From the sequence record PQ850611.1: a stretch of 44,189 nt of DNA; one strand, given 5' to 3'. The stretch comes from Escherichia phage JohannBuxtorf_Bas84. The notes under the pieces are model-generated. The model searched no databases. It was not told the origin of the DNA and worked only from the letters and a program-made list of their open reading frames with translations. The translations under genes and the position numbers were made by a program. This document shows positions 4,990 to 32,155 of the stretch, in pieces (the stretch's first letter is position 1; each line of letters starts with the position of its first letter).

Positions 4990-5001
4990 TGGCCCCCTTT
5001 T
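4979..5001. terminator. bidirectional intrinsic terminator between convergent genes
   Basis: perfect GC stem gggggcc/ggccccc with 5-nt loop, followed by TTTT on plus strand and A/T-rich run on minus strand; sits between stop of 4750-4989 and stop of 5004-5768. Confidence 0.7.
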
Positions 5002-5003
5002 CG

Positions 5004-5768
5004 TTAGCGCGGAATACCGCAAATCTCGTTTAACGTCTTCACGTCCAGCGCCACCGCCGTGGACTTCGGCTTGTCCGGGTAAGGAATGAACTGTTCCACT
5101 TCAGGCCACGCCTTGATCAGCTTCTTATCTGTATTGTGCATATCCAGCACGCCGGTAACGGTTAGTTTGAACGCGTCATACTTCGCGCGCAATTCGCGGC
5201 GGGCCTTGTCGTTACGGTCCAGGCGCTTGCAGAAATCATGGTCCGCCGGGTAGTCTGCGCGATCGCGAGGGAGATATATCGGCAGCGCTTTCCCATCCTC
5301 GTCCACTTCACATACTGAGGCCAGCATAACTTCCTCATACCCTGGGACTATATCGCCGAGGTCAGGCGCGAGCTTGTTCATGTATTTGATGTCCCAGTAT
5401 CCGCGACGTACGCGGTTTTGTCGCCCGTCGCCGCTCAATGACAAGGTGCGAACATTGCCGCCTGCGTTTATTTCGAAAGAGGCGTCGTAAACGCTGCCAA
5501 TACCTTTCGGGCGGTCGGTGTTATAGCTATACGTCGCCTTGTTGGTGTAGACGCTGACGCCGTACATCTGCGACTGGTCGCCGCGGATTAACTGGATATG
5601 CTCGCGTAGCGCGGCGAATGTGCGAATGCCTTCCGGCATACAGTCCAGCGTAATGGCGTACGCCAGGTCGCGCGAGTCCATCATGATGGATTTTGCTTCG
5701 GTCGCGATTTCATGGTCGCGCAGGATGTTAGCCAGAATCTGGTTTTTAATGTCTTTCGTCAGTCTCAT
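5004..5768 (-). CDS. hypothetical protein (minus-strand insert in head module)
   Basis: 254 aa from internal ATG (MRLTKDIK...) with RBS GAGGA 8 nt upstream; opposite orientation to flanking structural genes; own upstream motif pair and downstream terminator. Confidence 0.6.
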   Translation of the reverse strand: MRLTKDIKNQILANILRDHEIATEAKSIMMDSRDLAYAITLDCMPEGIRTFAALREHIQLIRGDQSQMYGVSVYTNKATYSYNTDRPKGIGSVYDASFEINAGGNVRTLSLSGDGRQNRVRRGYWDIKYMNKLAPDLGDIVPGYEEVMLASVCEVDEDGKALPIYLPRDRADYPADHDFCKRLDRNDKARRELRAKYDAFKLTVTGVLDMHNTDKKLIKAWPEVEQFIPYPDKPKSTAVALDVKTLNEICGIPR

Positions 5769-5790
5769 TTGTGTGTCCTCGTTGTTGGTG

Positions 5791-5814
5791 TGCAACCAAT
5801 ATAGTGCAACCAAT
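5791..5814. promoter_or_regulatory. tandem TGCAACCAAT motif pair in divergent intergenic region
   Basis: TGCAACCAAT at 5791-5800 and 5805-5814 (14-bp period) between divergent genes 5004-5768 (-) and 5918-6619 (+). Confidence 0.45.
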
Positions 5815-21835: not shown

Positions 21836-23632
21836 ATGGCAGCGGGTACTCTATCCGTAACGAATAACAGCAAGGCGGTTGTAGGGGCCGGCACAACGTT
21901 TACCGCGTTTAACGCTGGCGACTTCTTAACGCTGGTGGTAGGACAAGTCCCCTACACCGTAGCTATCGCGTCCGTTGAAAGCGACACCGCTCTTACGCTG
22001 GTGCTGCCGTTCGACGGCCCGACGGCAACCGGCCTCGCGTGGGATGGCGTTAAGCGCGATACCATGTCACTGGCGACGATGGGCGTAACCGTCCAGGCAC
22101 AGAAAGCATTGCGCTTGATGATCGCAGATGAAAACAACTGGCGTGCAATCTTCGGCGACGCTGAAGAAATCACCGTGACGTTACCTAACGGGCAGGTTAT
22201 GCAGGGAATGTCATGGGGCTATCTGTCGCAGTTGATGAAACAGATCGACCCCGTTGAGATGCGCAACCTGCAACAACAAGCCGCCGCATCTGAAGCAGCA
22301 GCGCAGGGATACCGGAACGAGGCCGAAGGCTTCAAGACCGAGACGGCTGGGATTCGCGATGCCACCGATGCCATCAGGACGCAAACCGATCAGATTAAAT
22401 CTGATACGCAGGCCATAAAAGACCAGACCGATCAGATTAAATCTGATACGCAGGCCATAAAAGACCAGACCAACCAGATTAAGACGGATACCGGCGTTAT
22501 TCGCGACGAAGCCAATACCGCGAAGACGGACGCGCAATCCGCCCGCGATGCTGCGCTGGGATACCGGAACGAGGCCGAACAGTTCAAAAATGAGATCGAC
22601 CCGTCGAAACTTCTGGCAAAGGCCAACAACCTTAGCGACGTTGCCGACCCCGCGGCAGCGCGCGACCACTTAGGCATCGGGCCTGACGACACCCTTACAT
22701 TAGGGAACCTGGTAACAACAGGCAACATATCCACGACAGGCGGCATATCCGCGGGCCGCAACACGTGGGATGGGTCTAACTGGGGGAGCCAGGGACTTCT
22801 CGCCTCATTAGCGATCCTATCCCCGGACGGAAACTCAGCCCCAGGCTTATACGTGCGAAAATCCAACGGCGACAGCGGATATGCGGGGGAATGGTTGTAT
22901 TACGAGAACAGTATCAGTTGGGCTACTAACGCGCGTATTGCGGGCTTTCAGTTCCGGTCCCCTAAAGGCGCGATGGGGTATAGCCAGCTATGGTCAGAGG
23001 CTGTGGTGCGTGCGGACGACTTCACGGCACAGAATGGCACGGAAAACTATAAGTCGTTAATCGCAGGGGCCGCTGTGACGCAAGACATAGGATTCGCGGG
23101 CGGTGTCTCGTTCGGGATAATGACAACTGGCATAAACAACTGGCCCCGGGCGCAGATCTCGATCGGCACAGCAGACCGTGACGCCGCTGGGAATATGGCT
23201 TCGCAGATGCACATCCGCTTTAATGAATATGGGCAGATTTCATACGTAGGGCCACTGGGGGCGGGGTCGTTCCAGCAAGTACCTGCGTCGGATCGCAACC
23301 TGAAGCATGACATTGCCGATGACGCAAGCAGCACCGCCTACGACAATATCAAGGCTTTGCGGTTCCGCACGTTCGTATACAACAACGATGAACAGGAACG
23401 GCAGCGTCGCGGTATTATTGCGCAGGAAGTGGAAGAAATCGACCCGCTGTATGTGAAGCACCGCGTGTATAACAATCACGAATTAAATGGGCCGCTGGTG
23501 CACCAGCTTGAACTGGATACGACGCCGCTGTTACTCGACACTATGCGAGCGTTGCAGGATACGATTAAGCAGGTGGAGGAGTTGAAGGCGGAGATCGCGG
23601 CGTTGAAGCAGGCGGAAGAGTTGAAGAAATAG
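21836..23632 (+). CDS. tail fibre protein with C-terminal intramolecular chaperone (peptidase S74-like) domain
   Basis: RBS GAGGA 7 nt upstream of ATG 21836; 14-residue repeats TDQIKSDTQAIKDQ; C-terminal segment NLKHDIADDASSTAYDNIKALRFRTFVYNNDEQERQRRGIIAQEVEEIDPLYV resembles auto-cleaving chaperone domains of phage fibres. Confidence 0.75.
   Translation: MAAGTLSVTNNSKAVVGAGTTFTAFNAGDFLTLVVGQVPYTVAIASVESDTALTLVLPFDGPTATGLAWDGVKRDTMSLATMGVTVQAQKALRLMIADENNWRAIFGDAEEITVTLPNGQVMQGMSWGYLSQLMKQIDPVEMRNLQQQAAASEAAAQGYRNEAEGFKTETAGIRDATDAIRTQTDQIKSDTQAIKDQTDQIKSDTQAIKDQTNQIKTDTGVIRDEANTAKTDAQSARDAALGYRNEAEQFKNEIDPSKLLAKANNLSDVADPAAARDHLGIGPDDTLTLGNLVTTGNISTTGGISAGRNTWDGSNWGSQGLLASLAILSPDGNSAPGLYVRKSNGDSGYAGEWLYYENSISWATNARIAGFQFRSPKGAMGYSQLWSEAVVRADDFTAQNGTENYKSLIAGAAVTQDIGFAGGVSFGIMTTGINNWPRAQISIGTADRDAAGNMASQMHIRFNEYGQISYVGPLGAGSFQQVPASDRNLKHDIADDASSTAYDNIKALRFRTFVYNNDEQERQRRGIIAQEVEEIDPLYVKHRVYNNHELNGPLVHQLELDTTPLLLDTMRALQDTIKQVEELKAEIAALKQAEELKK
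22385..22468 (+). repeat. perfect 42-bp tandem duplication inside tail fibre gene
   Basis: units 22385-22426 and 22427-22468 identical, followed by a degenerate third unit; encode TDQIKSDTQAIKDQ twice. Confidence 0.9.
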
Positions 23633-25314: not shown

Positions 25315-25532
25315 TTTAATTCCGCCATTAAATTTTCACGTACAATACGGGCTGAGAATGCGTCGCACACAAGATGGCAACGCGCCGTCATAACAAGCCA
25401 GCCAGTTAGGTCAAGGCCCAGCAATTGATGAGGTTGGCTTGCGCGCCTTACTTTATTTCCAGGGAAAACCTGGTAGCGTTTAATTATTTCATCCACGACG
25501 CGAGGACTTCGATCGAAGACTAAGATATTCAT
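25311..25532 (-). CDS. small hypothetical protein
   Basis: 73 aa; RBS GAAGGTG; stop overlaps HAD start (ATGA); fills gap between Dam and HAD genes; overlaps Dam 3' end by ~44 nt so uncertain. Confidence 0.35.
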   Translation of the reverse strand: MNILVFDRSPRVVDEIIKRYQVFPGNKVRRASQPHQLLGLDLTGWLVMTARCHLVCDAFSARIVRENLMAELK

Positions 25533-25998
25533 TTAATTCACCTTCGCTCATTATTTCTATTTGTGCGCTGCCGTTTGGCGGCACTTCTTCAAAGATTATC
25601 AATTGCTGGCACTTGTTGTTACTCGGCCCGACGTTACCGGTGACGGCGTGTATAAACCGGATCCGCCAGTCCAGCAAAATAATCAGGTTGGCGGTTTGCC
25701 TTGCCAGTTTGGCCCACTTCGTGGTCGTATCCTGGTTGAGCAACATTACCGTCTTACGCCCCTGCGATGCGCAAGTCACCCACGGCAGCGGGTCGGAATA
25801 CGGCGGATTGCACCACTTCCACCCGGTTAACTCTGACCAGTCAGCATCAAGTGCGCTGTGCTCTTTCGTGAAGTAGCGCGGTAATAGATGGTTGTGGTCG
25901 CTCGCCGCCATGTCGTAGCGGAATTTAAACGCCTTGCGCAGTGGCTTAAATAAAGCGGGCGGCGTTCGCCAGCTATCCTTCTGCTCATTCTCCGTCAT
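25489..25998 (-). CDS. DNA N6-adenine methyltransferase (phage Dam family)
   Basis: 169 aa; motifs WRTPPALF, DMAAS and catalytic NPPYS characteristic of phage Dam-type N6-adenine MTases. Confidence 0.8.
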   Translation of the reverse strand: MTENEQKDSWRTPPALFKPLRKAFKFRYDMAASDHNHLLPRYFTKEHSALDADWSELTGWKWCNPPYSDPLPWVTCASQGRKTVMLLNQDTTTKWAKLARQTANLIILLDWRIRFIHAVTGNVGPSNNKCQQLIIFEEVPPNGSAQIEIMSEGELNEYLSLRSKSSRRG

Positions 25999-26443
25999 GC
26001 TGCGGGTCCAGTGCGTAAAGTGGGATTTTCTTGTCGCTGGTCAGCACGCGTTTCAGTCGCTCTAATTCCTGCTCCCCTAGCGGACGTGAATCAGAATAGT
26101 AGCTGCCGTTTGCCCGCCACGCCATAAGCACCAGGTCTTTACGGTCGATCTTAGACTGGCGGCCTTTCGGGCGCACGTATTCCTCGGCCCGTTTGCAATG
26201 CTCGCGCAAACCTTCGGCAGTGATGCGGTTTAGGGCAACGCTGGTTGTATATCCGGTGCGCTGCATAATCCCCATCAATTCGAAAAGCAGTTCGAAGCGC
26301 TCCTCTAATTCCTTGCGCATCTTCTCCTCGCCTTCATAGCTTGCCAGGTAGGTATCAGCCAGCGCGTTCGCCCGTTCGGCTTGCTCTCGGGCTTCGAGGC
26401 ATTGCGCGGCCCAGTAATTTTTCTCTTCTTGTAAAATTTTCAT
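25985..26443 (-). CDS. hypothetical protein
   Basis: 152 aa; RBS GGAGA; charged helical N-terminal half; no recognised motif. Confidence 0.55.
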   Translation of the reverse strand: MKILQEEKNYWAAQCLEAREQAERANALADTYLASYEGEEKMRKELEERFELLFELMGIMQRTGYTTSVALNRITAEGLREHCKRAEEYVRPKGRQSKIDRKDLVLMAWRANGSYYSDSRPLGEQELERLKRVLTSDKKIPLYALDPQHDGE

Positions 26444-26524: not shown

Positions 26525-26848
26525 TTACGAATAAAAATTTGGGTCGCGTGCAACGTCTACCAGATACAGATTGCTGATTCGGTTGCCGTAGTGGCCTGGT
26601 GTTCGCTGGCGGCACACAACGGCGTAGCCTGGAGGAATTGTATTGCCGGTCGCGATAATCCACGCCACGCGTGCGCCAGACAGCGTCTTTCCGTTGCATT
26701 CGATACGTGTTCCGCCGTCGGCAGTATTGATGTTGCCAATCTTGCAGCCGGTGGACTTCAGACGAATGACGCCGGTTTTGCTGTCGTAGGAGAATAACTG
26801 GTTAGTCATTGCGACCGAAAAGTCGATGGCTTCGAATGTCGTATTCAT
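26525..26848 (-). CDS. HNH_3-like small protein (possibly degenerate HNH endonuclease)
   Basis: 107 aa; RBS GAGGA; segment ARVAWIIATGNTIPPGYAVVCRQRTPGHYGNRISNLYLVD resembles the HNH_3 core but the usual catalytic His position is not obvious. Confidence 0.4.
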   Translation of the reverse strand: MNTTFEAIDFSVAMTNQLFSYDSKTGVIRLKSTGCKIGNINTADGGTRIECNGKTLSGARVAWIIATGNTIPPGYAVVCRQRTPGHYGNRISNLYLVDVARDPNFYS

Positions 26849-27484
26849 TTTAAATTTTCCTCGTTAACCGCTATCGCGAAGCCGCGCGGAGTGAGCGACC
26901 GGATTAATTTTGTGCGGGCTGATTTGCCTCCGAGGCGACTATACTGCTTCGAGTACCCTTTTTCAACGAAAACGGGTTTCTTCTCTGGCATACGGAAGCC
27001 GTTGCCGGTCCATAAGCAGGTCAGCTTCGGATATGAATCGCGGGCGTTGATGTATTCCGGGAAGAGCGGGTGTACGTCATCCTCCGGCAGATATCCCCCA
27101 TACTCCCACGGGTCGAATGAGTGATCCGGTTTGCGCCACTGGGTGGATAGCACACTGCGCGGATTCTCAATCATATATGGCACTTCGAAGAAGTCACCCA
27201 GGTAAGCGGCGATCTTCGCGGTGCGCACCGCTCACTGCCAGATCCGTGCACGGAGGAAACGCATAGATGATATCTGGCGTACCGAAATCACCATTCATCG
27301 CACGGTCTACAAAGTCCAGATCGATAAACTCATTGCGATAGCGGATTCCGCGACCATAAATCCGGTAGTCAAGGTATGACCCGTGATCAGCTTCGGAGTA
27401 GTTGAAGCAATAACACTTATGCCCCATCTCGGCAGCACGCTCAATCATCAAGCCGCTGCCGTCAAACAATGACCAGATTATCAT
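26845..27484 (-). pseudogene. C5-cytosine DNA methyltransferase-like gene split by a frame disruption
   Basis: ORF 27194-27484 carries motif I-like LFDGSG and motif IV-like FPPCTDLAVSGA; ORF 26845-27228 (GTG start, other frame) carries motif VI-like ENP and C-terminal TPRGFAIAV; frames differ by +1 within 27197-27231. Confidence 0.5.
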
Positions 27485-28905
27485 TTGCGCGCCTTTTTAG
27501 CTTTCATGTATTCCATCAAGTCGTCCTGAATATCTCGCTTACTGTCGCGACGCTCGGCGACCAATTCGTCCAGTGTACCGCGCGCCTGGATAATGTAGAC
27601 GAATACCGGTCGAGGGTGTCCGGCCTGCATCTGGCGAACCGGCCCGATACGTTCAACGATCTGCGAAAAGTGCTCAAAGTTCCAGGTATCGGAGAATATT
27701 GCCAGGTGATGTCCGCCGTCCTGCAAGTTAAGGCCGTGGCCCGCCGATGCCGGGTGTGCAAACATGATGGGGATCTCGCCCCTGTTCCACGCTTCCATAT
27801 CCTTATTGCCCTGCTTACCTTTACCCAACGCAACGCCGTGCGGAAATTTCTTCTTAAGACGTGCCAGGTCATGCTTATACTGATACGCAACGAGCAACGG
27901 CGCGCCGTTCAACTCCTCCACGATACTTTCCAGCGCGTCCAGTTTGGCGTCGTGAATCTTCACCCACTCGTCGGTCCTTTCGCCGTCTTCGTCCACCTTA
28001 TACACAGCGCCGGAAGCAAGCTGAAGGCACTTAATTGTCTTCGATGCCGCGTTCGCCGCTTCCACAGTCCCGCTTTCCAGTTCGGCGAATAGCTCGCTTT
28101 CAAACTGGTCGTAAATCTTGCGGGCTTTCTTCGGCAGGTCCACAACAACAGGCGTATAGATTGGCTTGTCGCACCCGAAATATTCAGCCGCGTCAACGGT
28201 GAGGGATACATCTGACAGACGTTGTTGTATCTCTTTCTCGGAGTTCTTTAGCGGAGCGTGCTGCATAGTGAAGCTGCCAGGCTTAACAGGCTTGCTAATG
28301 AACCAGCGGTCGGTAAATGCCTTATAGCTACTGCCGAGGCGTTCGCCACCGTCGACAAACCACGTCTGACCCCATAAGTCTTTCAGCCCGTTGGGTGCGG
28401 GTGTGCCTGTAAGGTTAATCCAGCGCTTGACGTGTTTATGTGCAATCGCTGCTAGTGCGCGGGCGCGCTTGCTCCCCTGCGTGCTACGATAGCCTTTCAG
28501 CTTAGTGGATTCATCGGCAACAACGACCGTAAAGGGCCACGCATCGCCGTAATAGTCGACCAGCCACTCAACCACATCATAGTTAACACAAACCACGTTA
28601 GCATCGCTCTCAAGCGCTGCGATACGGTCCTTCTCCGGCCCAGTGCCGTCTACGACCAGCAGGGATGAGAACCGCCATTTCTCCTGCTCCGGGGGCCATG
28701 TACCTGACGCAACGCGCAGCGGGGCCAGCACCAGTACGCGGTCCTCATGATGGGACAGGACGCCAGTCTGGAACATTTTATTCAGCGCCCACATTGTCGC
28801 GCCGGTTTTTCCCGATCCCATTGTCGCCCAGATATTACATCGCTTATGCTTGAGGATGAACGCGGTTATCAACTTCTGATATTCGCGGCGTCGGAATCGT
28901 GCCAT
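27481..28905 (-). CDS. SNF2/DEAD-like superfamily 2 helicase
   Basis: 475 aa from ATG 28905 (MARFRRREYQ...); motif I GSGKT, motif II VVADESTK, motif VI-like QIVERIGPVRQ. Confidence 0.8.
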   Translation of the reverse strand: MARFRRREYQKLITAFILKHKRCNIWATMGSGKTGATMWALNKMFQTGVLSHHEDRVLVLAPLRVASGTWPPEQEKWRFSSLLVVDGTGPEKDRIAALESDANVVCVNYDVVEWLVDYYGDAWPFTVVVADESTKLKGYRSTQGSKRARALAAIAHKHVKRWINLTGTPAPNGLKDLWGQTWFVDGGERLGSSYKAFTDRWFISKPVKPGSFTMQHAPLKNSEKEIQQRLSDVSLTVDAAEYFGCDKPIYTPVVVDLPKKARKIYDQFESELFAELESGTVEAANAASKTIKCLQLASGAVYKVDEDGERTDEWVKIHDAKLDALESIVEELNGAPLLVAYQYKHDLARLKKKFPHGVALGKGKQGNKDMEAWNRGEIPIMFAHPASAGHGLNLQDGGHHLAIFSDTWNFEHFSQIVERIGPVRQMQAGHPRPVFVYIIQARGTLDELVAERRDSKRDIQDDLMEYMKAKKARK

Positions 28906-29671: not shown

Positions 29672-29859
29672 TTAGTTTGCAATTCCACGTTACGCAGACG
29701 AAGGTCTACCGGTATATCCGATCGCCCGGTTAGCGCCAGCGCCAGGTTTTCAGGCGTGACAAGTGCCGTAATGGTCTTGCCACGTTCCAGTCTAATGACG
29801 ATTCGAATCTCGTCATTGTCCGCCGCGCCAGCGCGCATAATGCTCATTTCTGCTTTCAT
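29668..29859 (-). CDS. small hypothetical protein
   Basis: 63 aa from ATG with RBS AGGAAG, starting 2 nt after the polymerase stop. Confidence 0.4.
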   Translation of the reverse strand: MKAEMSIMRAGAADNDEIRIVIRLERGKTITALVTPENLALALTGRSDIPVDLRLRNVELQTK

Positions 29860-29863
29860 AATC

Positions 29864-32155
29864 TTACTTCCTATATCTATACATAATGTCGCCTTCGGCG
29901 GCAAGTGGGAAGCCTTTCGCCCAAATCGGCAGGTCACACATCAGCGCGCAAAGCTCCTCGGTGGTGTAGTCGTCGGTGTCCGGCACTTCGGTGATCAATT
30001 CATCGTGTACTGACAGGACGATTTCATAGCCCGCAGCTTCAACGCCAGGCATGGACCATGCGAGAATATCGCGGCACAACGCCTGTACGATGTTCTCCGT
30101 CAGTTTGCCGCCGTAGGTGTACTGGAATCCCCACTGACGAGTCGTCTGATTCTCGCCCTGGTATTTGATGCGGGTACTGGTGCGCTTCTTGCCGGTGTCC
30201 TCGTCAATCTCTGTCGTAACAGACAGCGCGATGCCGGGGTAGCTCATGATGCGCCCTGACGGCAACTCAATTTTCAACCACCACCCCGCGGCGTTCGGGT
30301 CGTCGCGCTCCTCGTCGAAGGTTGGGTCGTGCTTCGCCTTCGTGCGCACAATCTTGAGCGCTTTTCTACCGTCCGGGCGAACGTTCGCGCCAGCCCAGTA
30401 TGCTTTGCCCGGATTGCGGATTGCACACAACACCGCGTCCTCAAGCTCGGCCCAAAAGGCTACCGTCTTCGGGTGAGCCTCACGCCACATACGTTTGATT
30501 GCGTCACAAGTCAGCCATACGTTTTTCGGCAGTATGTATGTTGGGCGCTCGTCTTTCTTGCCTGGCTTCGGTGGGCGTTTCGCTTCGTTAATGCGGGCGT
30601 ACTCATAGCCGCGTTTCGCCGCCGCCCAAATGTGATCAGGGAACGTGCCCTTCATGACGTCAGCCATAGTGTAAAGGTCGAGGCCCAGGTTTTTAGCGAA
30701 CTGCAAGAACGCAGCCACGCCGCCGCCATAGCCAAGTCCCAACTCACACGCCTTACCAATCTGGCGTAGGTCTTTGCGGTTGGCTTTAATGTATTCCGGG
30801 TCAAGGCCGAACATCTTACCGGCAGTTTCACAATAAATATCGCGACCGGCCCTAAACACCATTAGCGCGGTTTTCTCACCAGCGATCCAGGCGAGGCCAC
30901 GCCCTTCCACGTTAGAGTAGTCCGCTACGACAAACTTCTTGCCCTTAGCCGGGATAATGCACCCGCGAACGGTCGAGGCTGTTAGCTTAGATATGTCATA
31001 CGCCCAGTGCGCGGTCCCGCGTAACAGGGAATTGATGCCGTTGGTGAGCATGTGCGACCGGACCCAAAAAGCAACGTCGCTCTCGCCTTCGCGGCGCTTA
31101 ATCTTCCCTTCGTGATCGTCGCTATACTCGCCGCGTGCCAGGTTTTGAGGCTGGAAGCCTTTACCAGCCCAGCGCAGCGTGCGCTTTGCGCCACCATACT
31201 GAAGACACCCACGGCGGCGACCATCTGCGGATAAGCCATTAACGAGCGGATTGTATTTAGTCGATGCCGTTGATGACGCGCCGAGGCGCATTTCGATCAG
31301 CGCTTTGCCTTCGTCGGGGAAGTCCGGGTCTTCAAGAAGGTCGTTAAGCGTGGATTTTTGCGCGTTGTGGATCGTGAATGCTGGCGCAATATCACGCAGG
31401 ATTGGCAGGAAGTCATGGCCGGTCAGCTTACCGCCAAATCGCTCCCAGGCTTCTTCCTTCAATTCTTCCTTATGCGCCTGCACCGCTTTGATCGCGGCGT
31501 TCGCCAGATCAACGTCAACGTAGAAGCCGCGGTCGTTAATCAACTGGTCGATGAGCAGGATTTCATCTTCCTTCGGAGTATTACCCCAGTCCGGTATGCG
31601 CCAGTAGACTTCACGCATGGCAACAATATCCAGCGCGGCATAGCGCAAGAATTTGGCCCATTCTTCAGGGTGAGTCTCGCGCGTGTAGCGGCGTATTTTG
31701 TAGGTCTTAGGGGTAGGCTTACAGAATCGTTTGATCAGCGCCTTGCCTGCCTTATCCTTCGCGTGCTCTGCGTCAACGCCCAGCACCTGACACTGCATAT
31801 CGAGGCTACCAGGCAGCGCGTGGCGAAAGGCCATAATCATTGTGTCTTCGATCTGGCTTACCGGCAGGTCAATACCCCACTTCTCGCGGATAACCAAGCG
31901 GTCAAACTGGAGGCCGTTAGCCATCACTATTTTTGCTTTCTTGCGGGATACATGGCGGAGCGCCTTGCGCAGTTCACGCGGCATTGTGGGGGATTCAGTG
32001 CAATCCCATGTCTGCACGCGGCCTTCGTCGATGGCGTAGGTGCAAATCATAATCTCGGTGGTTGGGTGCTCCGCGTAGGCGTACGCCCCAACTTTCTTCA
32101 GGTCCACCCCGCTAAATGTCTCGGTATCGAGAAACAGGCGTTCGAAGTCTTTCAT
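29864..32155 (-). CDS. DNA polymerase, family A, with 3'-5' exonuclease domain
   Basis: 763 aa; exo motif LFLDTETFS near N-terminus; C-terminal polymerase motif VLSVHDELITEV; ATGA coupling with upstream small ORF. Confidence 0.9.
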   Translation of the reverse strand: MKDFERLFLDTETFSGVDLKKVGAYAYAEHPTTEIMICTYAIDEGRVQTWDCTESPTMPRELRKALRHVSRKKAKIVMANGLQFDRLVIREKWGIDLPVSQIEDTMIMAFRHALPGSLDMQCQVLGVDAEHAKDKAGKALIKRFCKPTPKTYKIRRYTRETHPEEWAKFLRYAALDIVAMREVYWRIPDWGNTPKEDEILLIDQLINDRGFYVDVDLANAAIKAVQAHKEELKEEAWERFGGKLTGHDFLPILRDIAPAFTIHNAQKSTLNDLLEDPDFPDEGKALIEMRLGASSTASTKYNPLVNGLSADGRRRGCLQYGGAKRTLRWAGKGFQPQNLARGEYSDDHEGKIKRREGESDVAFWVRSHMLTNGINSLLRGTAHWAYDISKLTASTVRGCIIPAKGKKFVVADYSNVEGRGLAWIAGEKTALMVFRAGRDIYCETAGKMFGLDPEYIKANRKDLRQIGKACELGLGYGGGVAAFLQFAKNLGLDLYTMADVMKGTFPDHIWAAAKRGYEYARINEAKRPPKPGKKDERPTYILPKNVWLTCDAIKRMWREAHPKTVAFWAELEDAVLCAIRNPGKAYWAGANVRPDGRKALKIVRTKAKHDPTFDEERDDPNAAGWWLKIELPSGRIMSYPGIALSVTTEIDEDTGKKRTSTRIKYQGENQTTRQWGFQYTYGGKLTENIVQALCRDILAWSMPGVEAAGYEIVLSVHDELITEVPDTDDYTTEELCALMCDLPIWAKGFPLAAEGDIMYRYRK

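Follow-up and report, generated by a model that had tools for sequence, protein, structure and literature searches.

Two overlapping open reading frames (ORFs) in the genome of Escherichia phage JohannBuxtorf_Bas84 (sequence record PQ850611.1) carry separate motifs of a C5-cytosine methyltransferase, and raise the question of whether a broken gene, a misread gene or an unusually decoded gene lies at this position. In both length and arrangement of genes, the window, i.e. the whole stretch of 44,189 nucleotides that was analysed, corresponds to a complete genome. The original prediction, made from the sequence alone, placed a C5-cytosine methyltransferase-like gene here, interrupted by a +1 frame change between motif IV and motif VI, and offered a recent pseudogene, a single-base sequencing error or a required +1 translational frameshift as explanations. 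Here, we describe the structure of this gene, the deletion that it carries, the uniqueness of that deletion, and the family and fold to which the protein belongs. The features of the locus are as follows.

25489-25998, minus strand: intact Dam-type N6-adenine methyltransferase gene (Pfam PF05869 Dam, E 8.3e-37)
26525-26848, minus strand: intact HNH endonuclease gene, downstream (PHROG 99 HNH, E 1.5e-16; 100% amino acid identity to SO-1 gp31)
26845-27484, minus strand: remnant of a dcm-like C5-cytosine methyltransferase gene, a pseudogene of 640 nt, relative to 696 nt in the intact gene
26845-27228, minus strand: 3' fragment ORF with a GTG start, 127 aa, in the +1 frame, equal to native residues 105-231
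27194-27484, minus strand: 5' fragment ORF with an ATG start, 96 aa, comprising native residues 1-87 and nine out-of-frame residues, HREDRRLPG
27218-27231, minus strand: perfect 14-nt palindrome GCGGTGCGCACCGC, consisting of the retained repeat and the next five bases, read from the sequence
27223-27231, minus strand: deletion junction with the single retained copy of GCGGTGCGC, from comparison with intact relatives
27481-28905, minus strand: intact SNF2-type DNA helicase gene, upstream (Pfam SNF2-rel_dom), whose stop overlaps the dcm start (ATGA)

The two minus-strand ORFs, 27194-27484 and 26845-27228, are the two halves of one gene. Their starts lie 256 nt apart (3 x 85 + 1), and thus the frames differ by +1, with an overlap zone at 27194-27228; both the ORFs and this zone agree with the interval originally proposed. 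The 5' fragment ORF contains motif I (LFDGSG) and motif IV (FPPC) with the catalytic Cys79, and ends at a premature TGA (27194-27196). Its translation reads MIIWSLFDGSG...AFPPCTDLAVSGA and then HREDRRLPG before the stop, with the stretch FPPCTDLAVSGA lying after LFDGSG and just before HREDRRLPG. The 3' fragment ORF contains motif VI (ENP, Glu125), Lys172 and the C-terminal SLTPRGF; it reads ...YMIENPRS...SLTPRGFA..., and its translation includes ...FEVPYMIENPRS...IRSLTPRGFAIAVNEENLK. The fragments match adjacent parts of the PHROG 757 family, annotated as DNA methyltransferase (positions 15-93, E 5e-27, and positions 106-218, E 8.8e-46), and the pairing is therefore not a matter of chance. A tblastn comparison of SO-1 gp32 to the window placed residues 104-231 at 27231-26848, in a frame different from that of residues 1-93. 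No single uninterrupted frame joins motifs I, IV and VI in the window copy; motifs I and IV are out of frame with motif VI. The GTG that opens the 3' fragment ORF is the native codon Val105, and the sole Shine-Dalgarno-like sequence is a GAG located 2 nt upstream of it, such that independent translation of this half appears unlikely.

The state of the gene in related phages provides the reference for this arrangement. The window and the region match more than 150 Dhillonvirus genomes (HK578/SO-1-like coliphages) at 88-95% identity overall, and the window is itself the genome of a siphophage from this genus. The full dcm-like gene is found in 148 of 154 INPHARED Dhillonvirus records, as one 696-nt piece among the matches listed, and all 14 IMG/VR loci at the Dhillonvirus level of identity (at least 91%) match over the full length in one segment. 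The intact gene in SO-1 (gp32, YP_003344967.1), BEK2-2 (QGH77267.1) and PaulFeyerabend (bas15_0036) is a single 696-nt ORF encoding 231 aa, rather than the approximately 213 aa that had been estimated from the two fragments combined. It occupies the same locus as the window copy, flanked by the genes for the SNF2 helicase and the HNH endonuclease, each of which it overlaps by an ATGA. The intact ORFs are uninterrupted, whereas the window copy lacks nucleotides 254-309.

Alignment of the window to the BEK2-2, SO-1 and PaulFeyerabend genes revealed one contiguous 56-nt gap in sequences that are elsewhere 95-99.6% identical; to SO-1 and BEK2-2, the nucleotide identity outside the gap is 99.3-99.6%. 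The missing block corresponds to reference nucleotides 254-309 and shows 9 nt of microhomology. In the intact relatives, a 9-nt direct repeat, GCGGTGCGC, flanks this block, its two copies being spaced by exactly 56 nt. Since 56 is not a multiple of three, the frame changes by +1. The deletion takes out native residues 88-104, which form the helix after the catalytic PC loop. Taken together, the 56-nt deletion and the premature TGA indicate that the window copy is a pseudogene of a compact Dcm-like family, and not a working member of it. We consider it very probable that a Dhillonvirus dcm-like gene was inactivated by a 56-nt deletion between the two copies of GCGGTGCGC. The recent pseudogene is thus the sole survivor of the three explanations that had been put forward.

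The junction fits a microhomology deletion of the slippage type. Replication slippage or microhomology-mediated recombination between the copies of GCGGTGCGC would remove 56 nt, possibly helped by a stem that brings both copies together. When both copies are present, as in the intact DNA, the right half of the palindrome is able to base-pair with the upstream one, looping out exactly the 56 nt that were lost. The calculated DNA fold of the intact BEK2-2 segment (-19.9 kcal/mol, z -1.7) is marginally better than shuffled controls, and a role for the hairpin in assisting slippage is only suggestive. With the frame shifted, translation would yield only a 96-aa fragment, in which motif I (SAM binding) and the catalytic cysteine are present; motif VI (ENP) and the C-terminal, DNA-binding part would lie out of frame and would have no credible start. 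From the sequence, we infer that methyltransferase activity has been lost in JohannBuxtorf_Bas84, and we predict that the phage makes no 5-methylcytosine marks of its own.

A single-base insertion or deletion made during sequencing would give the same net frame effect of +1. However, every relative differs from the window by an uninterrupted block of 56 nt, the sequence on either side of it departs from BEK2-2 and SO-1 by isolated substitutions only, and the site does not contain a homopolymer. The bounding of the missing block by a 9-nt direct repeat rules this explanation out, and we give it practically no weight. We regard it as very improbable that the two frames are joined by a programmed +1 ribosomal frameshift of the prfB type at GGG-UGA-C (27194-27199), or that they encode a functional two-piece enzyme. 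The context of the stop, GGG UGA C, could let tRNA-Gly slip +1 onto GGU and so enter the frame of the 3' fragment, and naturally split C5-methyltransferases exist, such as M.AquI. Yet the stop of the 5' fragment ORF exists solely through the deletion, the frame change coincides exactly with the unique 56-nt gap, and the two-frame arrangement is not conserved, as the gene is one ORF in 148 of the 154 relatives. A fusion produced at the shift would carry nine unrelated residues in place of residues 88-115, and the helix that follows the catalytic loop would be destroyed. Any fusion would lack residues 88-104, carry nine aberrant residues and fall about 19 residues short, and would not be a full-length functional protein. 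The frameshift was rejected because the arrangement is unconserved among orthologs and the fusion would still be defective. As for separately made halves, the GTG of the 3' fragment is an internal Val codon that does not have a properly spaced Shine-Dalgarno sequence, and the gene is split at this point in no relative.

The deletion might also be an artefact of assembly or library preparation, or a minority variant that the assembler followed, with the dcm gene of the real phage being intact; we consider this improbable. Its attraction is that the allele is confined to this window in all of the data searched, and that library-preparation polymerases can skip between short direct repeats across a hairpin. 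The junction sequence was not found in INPHARED phage genomes, IMG/VR, JGI metagenome contigs or GTDB genomes, and an exact-protein index had no record of the 96-aa product among 153 billion gene positions; the deletion allele is private to the JohannBuxtorf_Bas84 genome among these data. Against an artefact, the 9-nt repeat is far below the length of assembler k-mers, which makes a repeat collapse unlikely. In a tblastn comparison of 58 SO-1 proteins with the window, only the dcm-like gene was split between two frames, and none of the other 57 was. This indicates that the assembly is otherwise clean and not generally error-prone. Comparable clean deletions of dcm are also present in several independently sequenced relatives, and such alleles therefore exist in nature. 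We conclude that the locus is an ordinary dead gene, and neither a sequencing slip nor a programmed frameshift.

We characterized the family from the intact protein, which matches PHROG 757 with an E of 3.8e-82. A total of 2885 homologs were found, the top-listed full-length matches being 219-252 aa long, and relatives are encoded in 1483 phage records, including Drexlerviridae, Dhillonvirus, Jersey-like, rV5-like and other phages. The gene thus belongs to a known family, with many members, of Dcm-like C5-methyltransferases from phages, compact proteins of 225-250 aa among which its size is normal; the earlier description of it as unusually compact does not hold against these lengths, nor against the activity of the Dcm of phage K42, encoded by a gene of 711 bp. 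In an alignment of 117 sequences, motif I (FxGSG), motif IV (PPC) and motif VI (ENP) show little or no variation. An AlphaFold2 model of an intact representative, 99% identical to BEK2-2, has a pLDDT of 88.8 and a pTM of 0.89. The top 39 Foldseek matches to this model in the PDB were all C5 DNA methyltransferases (DNMT3A/3B, DNMT1 and a prophage methyltransferase). The absence of a methyltransferase fold, which had been named as grounds for refuting the proposal, was not borne out: the model matches the catalytic domains of DNMT3A/3B and DNMT1 with E down to 5e-6, a probability of 1.0 and TM-scores of 0.45-0.52. These TM-scores are moderate because the protein has almost no target-recognition domain. 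With the PHROG 757 matches and the motifs, the fold supports the proposal that a C5-cytosine methyltransferase-like gene is interrupted between motif IV and motif VI.

Sequence searches placed the protein at the edge of the recognized C5-methyltransferases. The intact 231-aa protein had no Pfam match at E of 1 or below and no NCBIfam match, and phmmer against PDB sequences gave no useful match; nor did the 117-sequence profile against the PDB, whose sole match was an unrelated kinase (E 0.45). The 96-aa fragment scored 11.7 bits against PF00145 (E 0.17), and both the window fragment and the intact protein lie below the gathering threshold of this DNA_methylase family (22 bits). PF00145 was matched at E of 0.1 or below by 57 of the 117 family members, the best with an E of 1.3e-6, and no other family recurs. 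Since these homologs match and the intact protein does not, the sequences place the family as a distant branch of the C5-methyltransferases that Pfam detects for some members only. The assignment of the Dhillonvirus protein as a predicted C5-methyltransferase rests on the modeled fold, the motifs, the PHROGs and homology to K42. Like the canonical enzymes (PF00145; M.HhaI, E. coli Dcm and the DNMT3A/3B catalytic domains), it has a Rossmann-type fold with motif I FxGxG, motif IV PC and motif VI ENx, but it is much smaller, has almost no target-recognition domain and falls below the Pfam thresholds.

The closest experimental anchor is the Dcm of phage KarlJaspers (Bas06, bas06_0055; Drexlerviridae) and its strain K42, which shares 95.4% genome identity with Bas06 (bioRxiv 10.1101/2023.08.16.553469). 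The intact Dhillonvirus protein is 54% identical to the KarlJaspers Dcm over the full length (E 1e-86), and the two belong to the same compact family (231 and 236 aa, the latter from a gene of 711 bp). They differ in phage family and genomic neighborhood, and in that the window copy is broken. In the alignment, K42/KarlJaspers residues C82, E128 and K175 correspond to Dhillonvirus residues C79, E125 and K172, whereas the second lysine, K176, is a leucine in the Dhillonvirus protein. K42 Dcm is the trigger of retron Ec86/Eco1 (bioRxiv 10.1101/2023.08.16.553469; PMC12916289). It raises 5-methylcytosine in the Ec86 msDNA, as measured by LC-MS, and by mutagenesis the response depends on C82, E128, K175, K176 and a CCTGG site in the msDNA, methylation of which by the phage enzyme sets off the retron; in K42 escapers from the retron, dcm is deleted in part, has a 1-bp indel or is mutated upstream (bioRxiv 10.1101/2023.08.16.553469). 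CCWGG is a putative target of the Dhillonvirus enzyme, extrapolated from K42 at 54% identity, and the target of K42 is itself assigned partly by analogy with the host Dcm.

At least six other independent lesions of the dcm-like gene were found among the relatives, from 60 matches examined per search.

SRR14521351 contig: loss of 108 nt, in frame, with 7-nt microhomology; removes ENP
ERR4158311 contig: loss of 213 nt, in frame
vB_EcoS_PS2: loss of 366 nt, in frame
Teewinot and Shigella phage 1b: loss of 510 nt, in frame
Metagenome scaffold ERZ28637042: loss of 10 nt, frameshift
Escherichia phage mckay (NC_073073.1): loss of 1 nt, frameshift, in an AAAAA run at reference position 578

Like the window allele, these decayed Dhillonvirus alleles are internal deletions, and four of the six, among them the 1-nt loss from the A-run, show microhomology of 4-7 nt. 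They differ from it in their end points, and four are in frame with both ATGA overlaps retained, whereas the window allele is a frameshift and has the longest microhomology (9 nt). The 1-nt loss in mckay, where the annotated dcm product is shortened to 211 aa, may be a real frameshift or may stem from misreading of the homopolymer during sequencing. Some of the alleles deleted in frame are annotated as DNA methyltransferase, although they are devoid of the catalytic motifs. Together with the K42 escapers, the lesions in relatives make the loss of a phage dcm gene a known and recurrent event.

The lesions also bear on what selection may have contributed. Approximately 96% of the relatives keep the dcm-like gene; thus, its loss is not generally favored and the gene must usually pay its way. 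The lesion in JohannBuxtorf_Bas84 may be adaptive, by analogy with K42, as an escape from a Dcm-sensing defense such as retron Ec86/Eco1, since loss of phage dcm is a documented means of escape from this retron. Alternatively, it may reflect neutral decay in hosts where CCWGG is already methylated by the resident Dcm. A fuller scenario is doubtful in our judgment: the window copy would be an escape allele selected through msDNA-methylation sensing of the Ec86/Eco1 type, the repeat and palindrome would form a contingency-like deletion hot spot in Dhillonviruses, and in-frame remnants would often be retained for translational coupling to the HNH gene. In-frame lesions account for four of seven distinct lesions, numbers too small to reveal whether translational coupling is under selection.

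McrBC-type methyl-dependent restriction was set aside as a driver of the loss, given that CmCWGG is not an RmC site and that K-12 itself is Dcm+. CCWGG, the Dcm/EcoRII site (e.g. 27198-27202), occurs 155 times in the window, compared to an expectation of 68 +/- 8.5 from dinucleotide-preserving shuffles, none of 100 of which reached 155. Thus, avoidance of CCWGG was not found in the window, despite the loss of the phage's own dcm. A search of the literature yielded no relevant methylome data for BASEL or Dhillonvirus phages. According to the BASEL paper, sensitivity to restriction does not follow in any simple way from the methyltransferase genes that a phage carries, a statement that concerns Drexlerviridae.

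For annotation, the locus is a dcm pseudogene, and should not be entered as two hypothetical proteins, as a target for one-base repair or as a recoding site. It belongs to a well-populated and experimentally anchored family, and the kind of event is already known. The phage is predicted to be devoid of self-encoded 5-methylcytosine protection and to be insensitive to defenses that sense phage Dcm (retron Ec86/Eco1). These predictions bear on the choice of phage for hosts such as E. coli B/BL21 and on the interpretation of host range. With the six or more independent lesions, the allele adds to a small natural data set on how easily a methyltransferase is discarded, be it a shield or a liability. 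The recurrent decay of dcm and its possible link to retron sensing form the mildly interesting angle of this locus.

The helicase, HNH and Dam genes around the remnant are intact. On the minus strand, the order is SNF2-type helicase, methyltransferase gene, HNH endonuclease, 152-aa ORF and Dam-type methyltransferase. The helicase is 99.8% identical in amino acid sequence to SO-1 gp33 (residues 1-474). The ATG of the HNH gene overlaps the native dcm-frame stop (ATGA), and the gene has its own GAGGA approximately 9 nt upstream. The broken gene had been described as sitting next to an intact Dam-type methyltransferase; the Dam gene is indeed intact and nearby (25489-25998), with residues 1-160 of SO-1 gp29 aligning to it in one frame, but it lies two genes away and is not adjacent. 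The helicase-dcm-HNH block (26525-28905) is 99.3-99.6% identical in nucleotide sequence to SO-1 and BEK2-2, whereas the Dam gene and the 152-aa ORF in the adjoining region (25489-26443) are only 87% and 79% identical to SO-1 in amino acid sequence. This near-identity beside diverged neighbors suggests a recent recombinational exchange of the helicase-dcm-HNH module. Several elements of SO-1 are missing from the window: the intron with an HNH gene that interrupts the DNA polymerase gene (gp39), the HNH gene gp37 and the RusA-like gene gp7. The tail-fiber protein of the window is only 51% identical to that of SO-1. The regions of difference from SO-1 lie at approximately 29700-32150, approximately 5000-5800 and 21836-23611, and are typical of Dhillonvirus mosaicism. 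The 152-aa ORF (25985-26443, minus strand) is homologous to SO-1 gp30, which is annotated as a DNA ligase. This label is doubtful for an ORF that is far too small for a ligase; the BEK2-2 homolog is annotated as a shorter gene (261 nt), and its record remarks that support for naming it a ligase is lacking.
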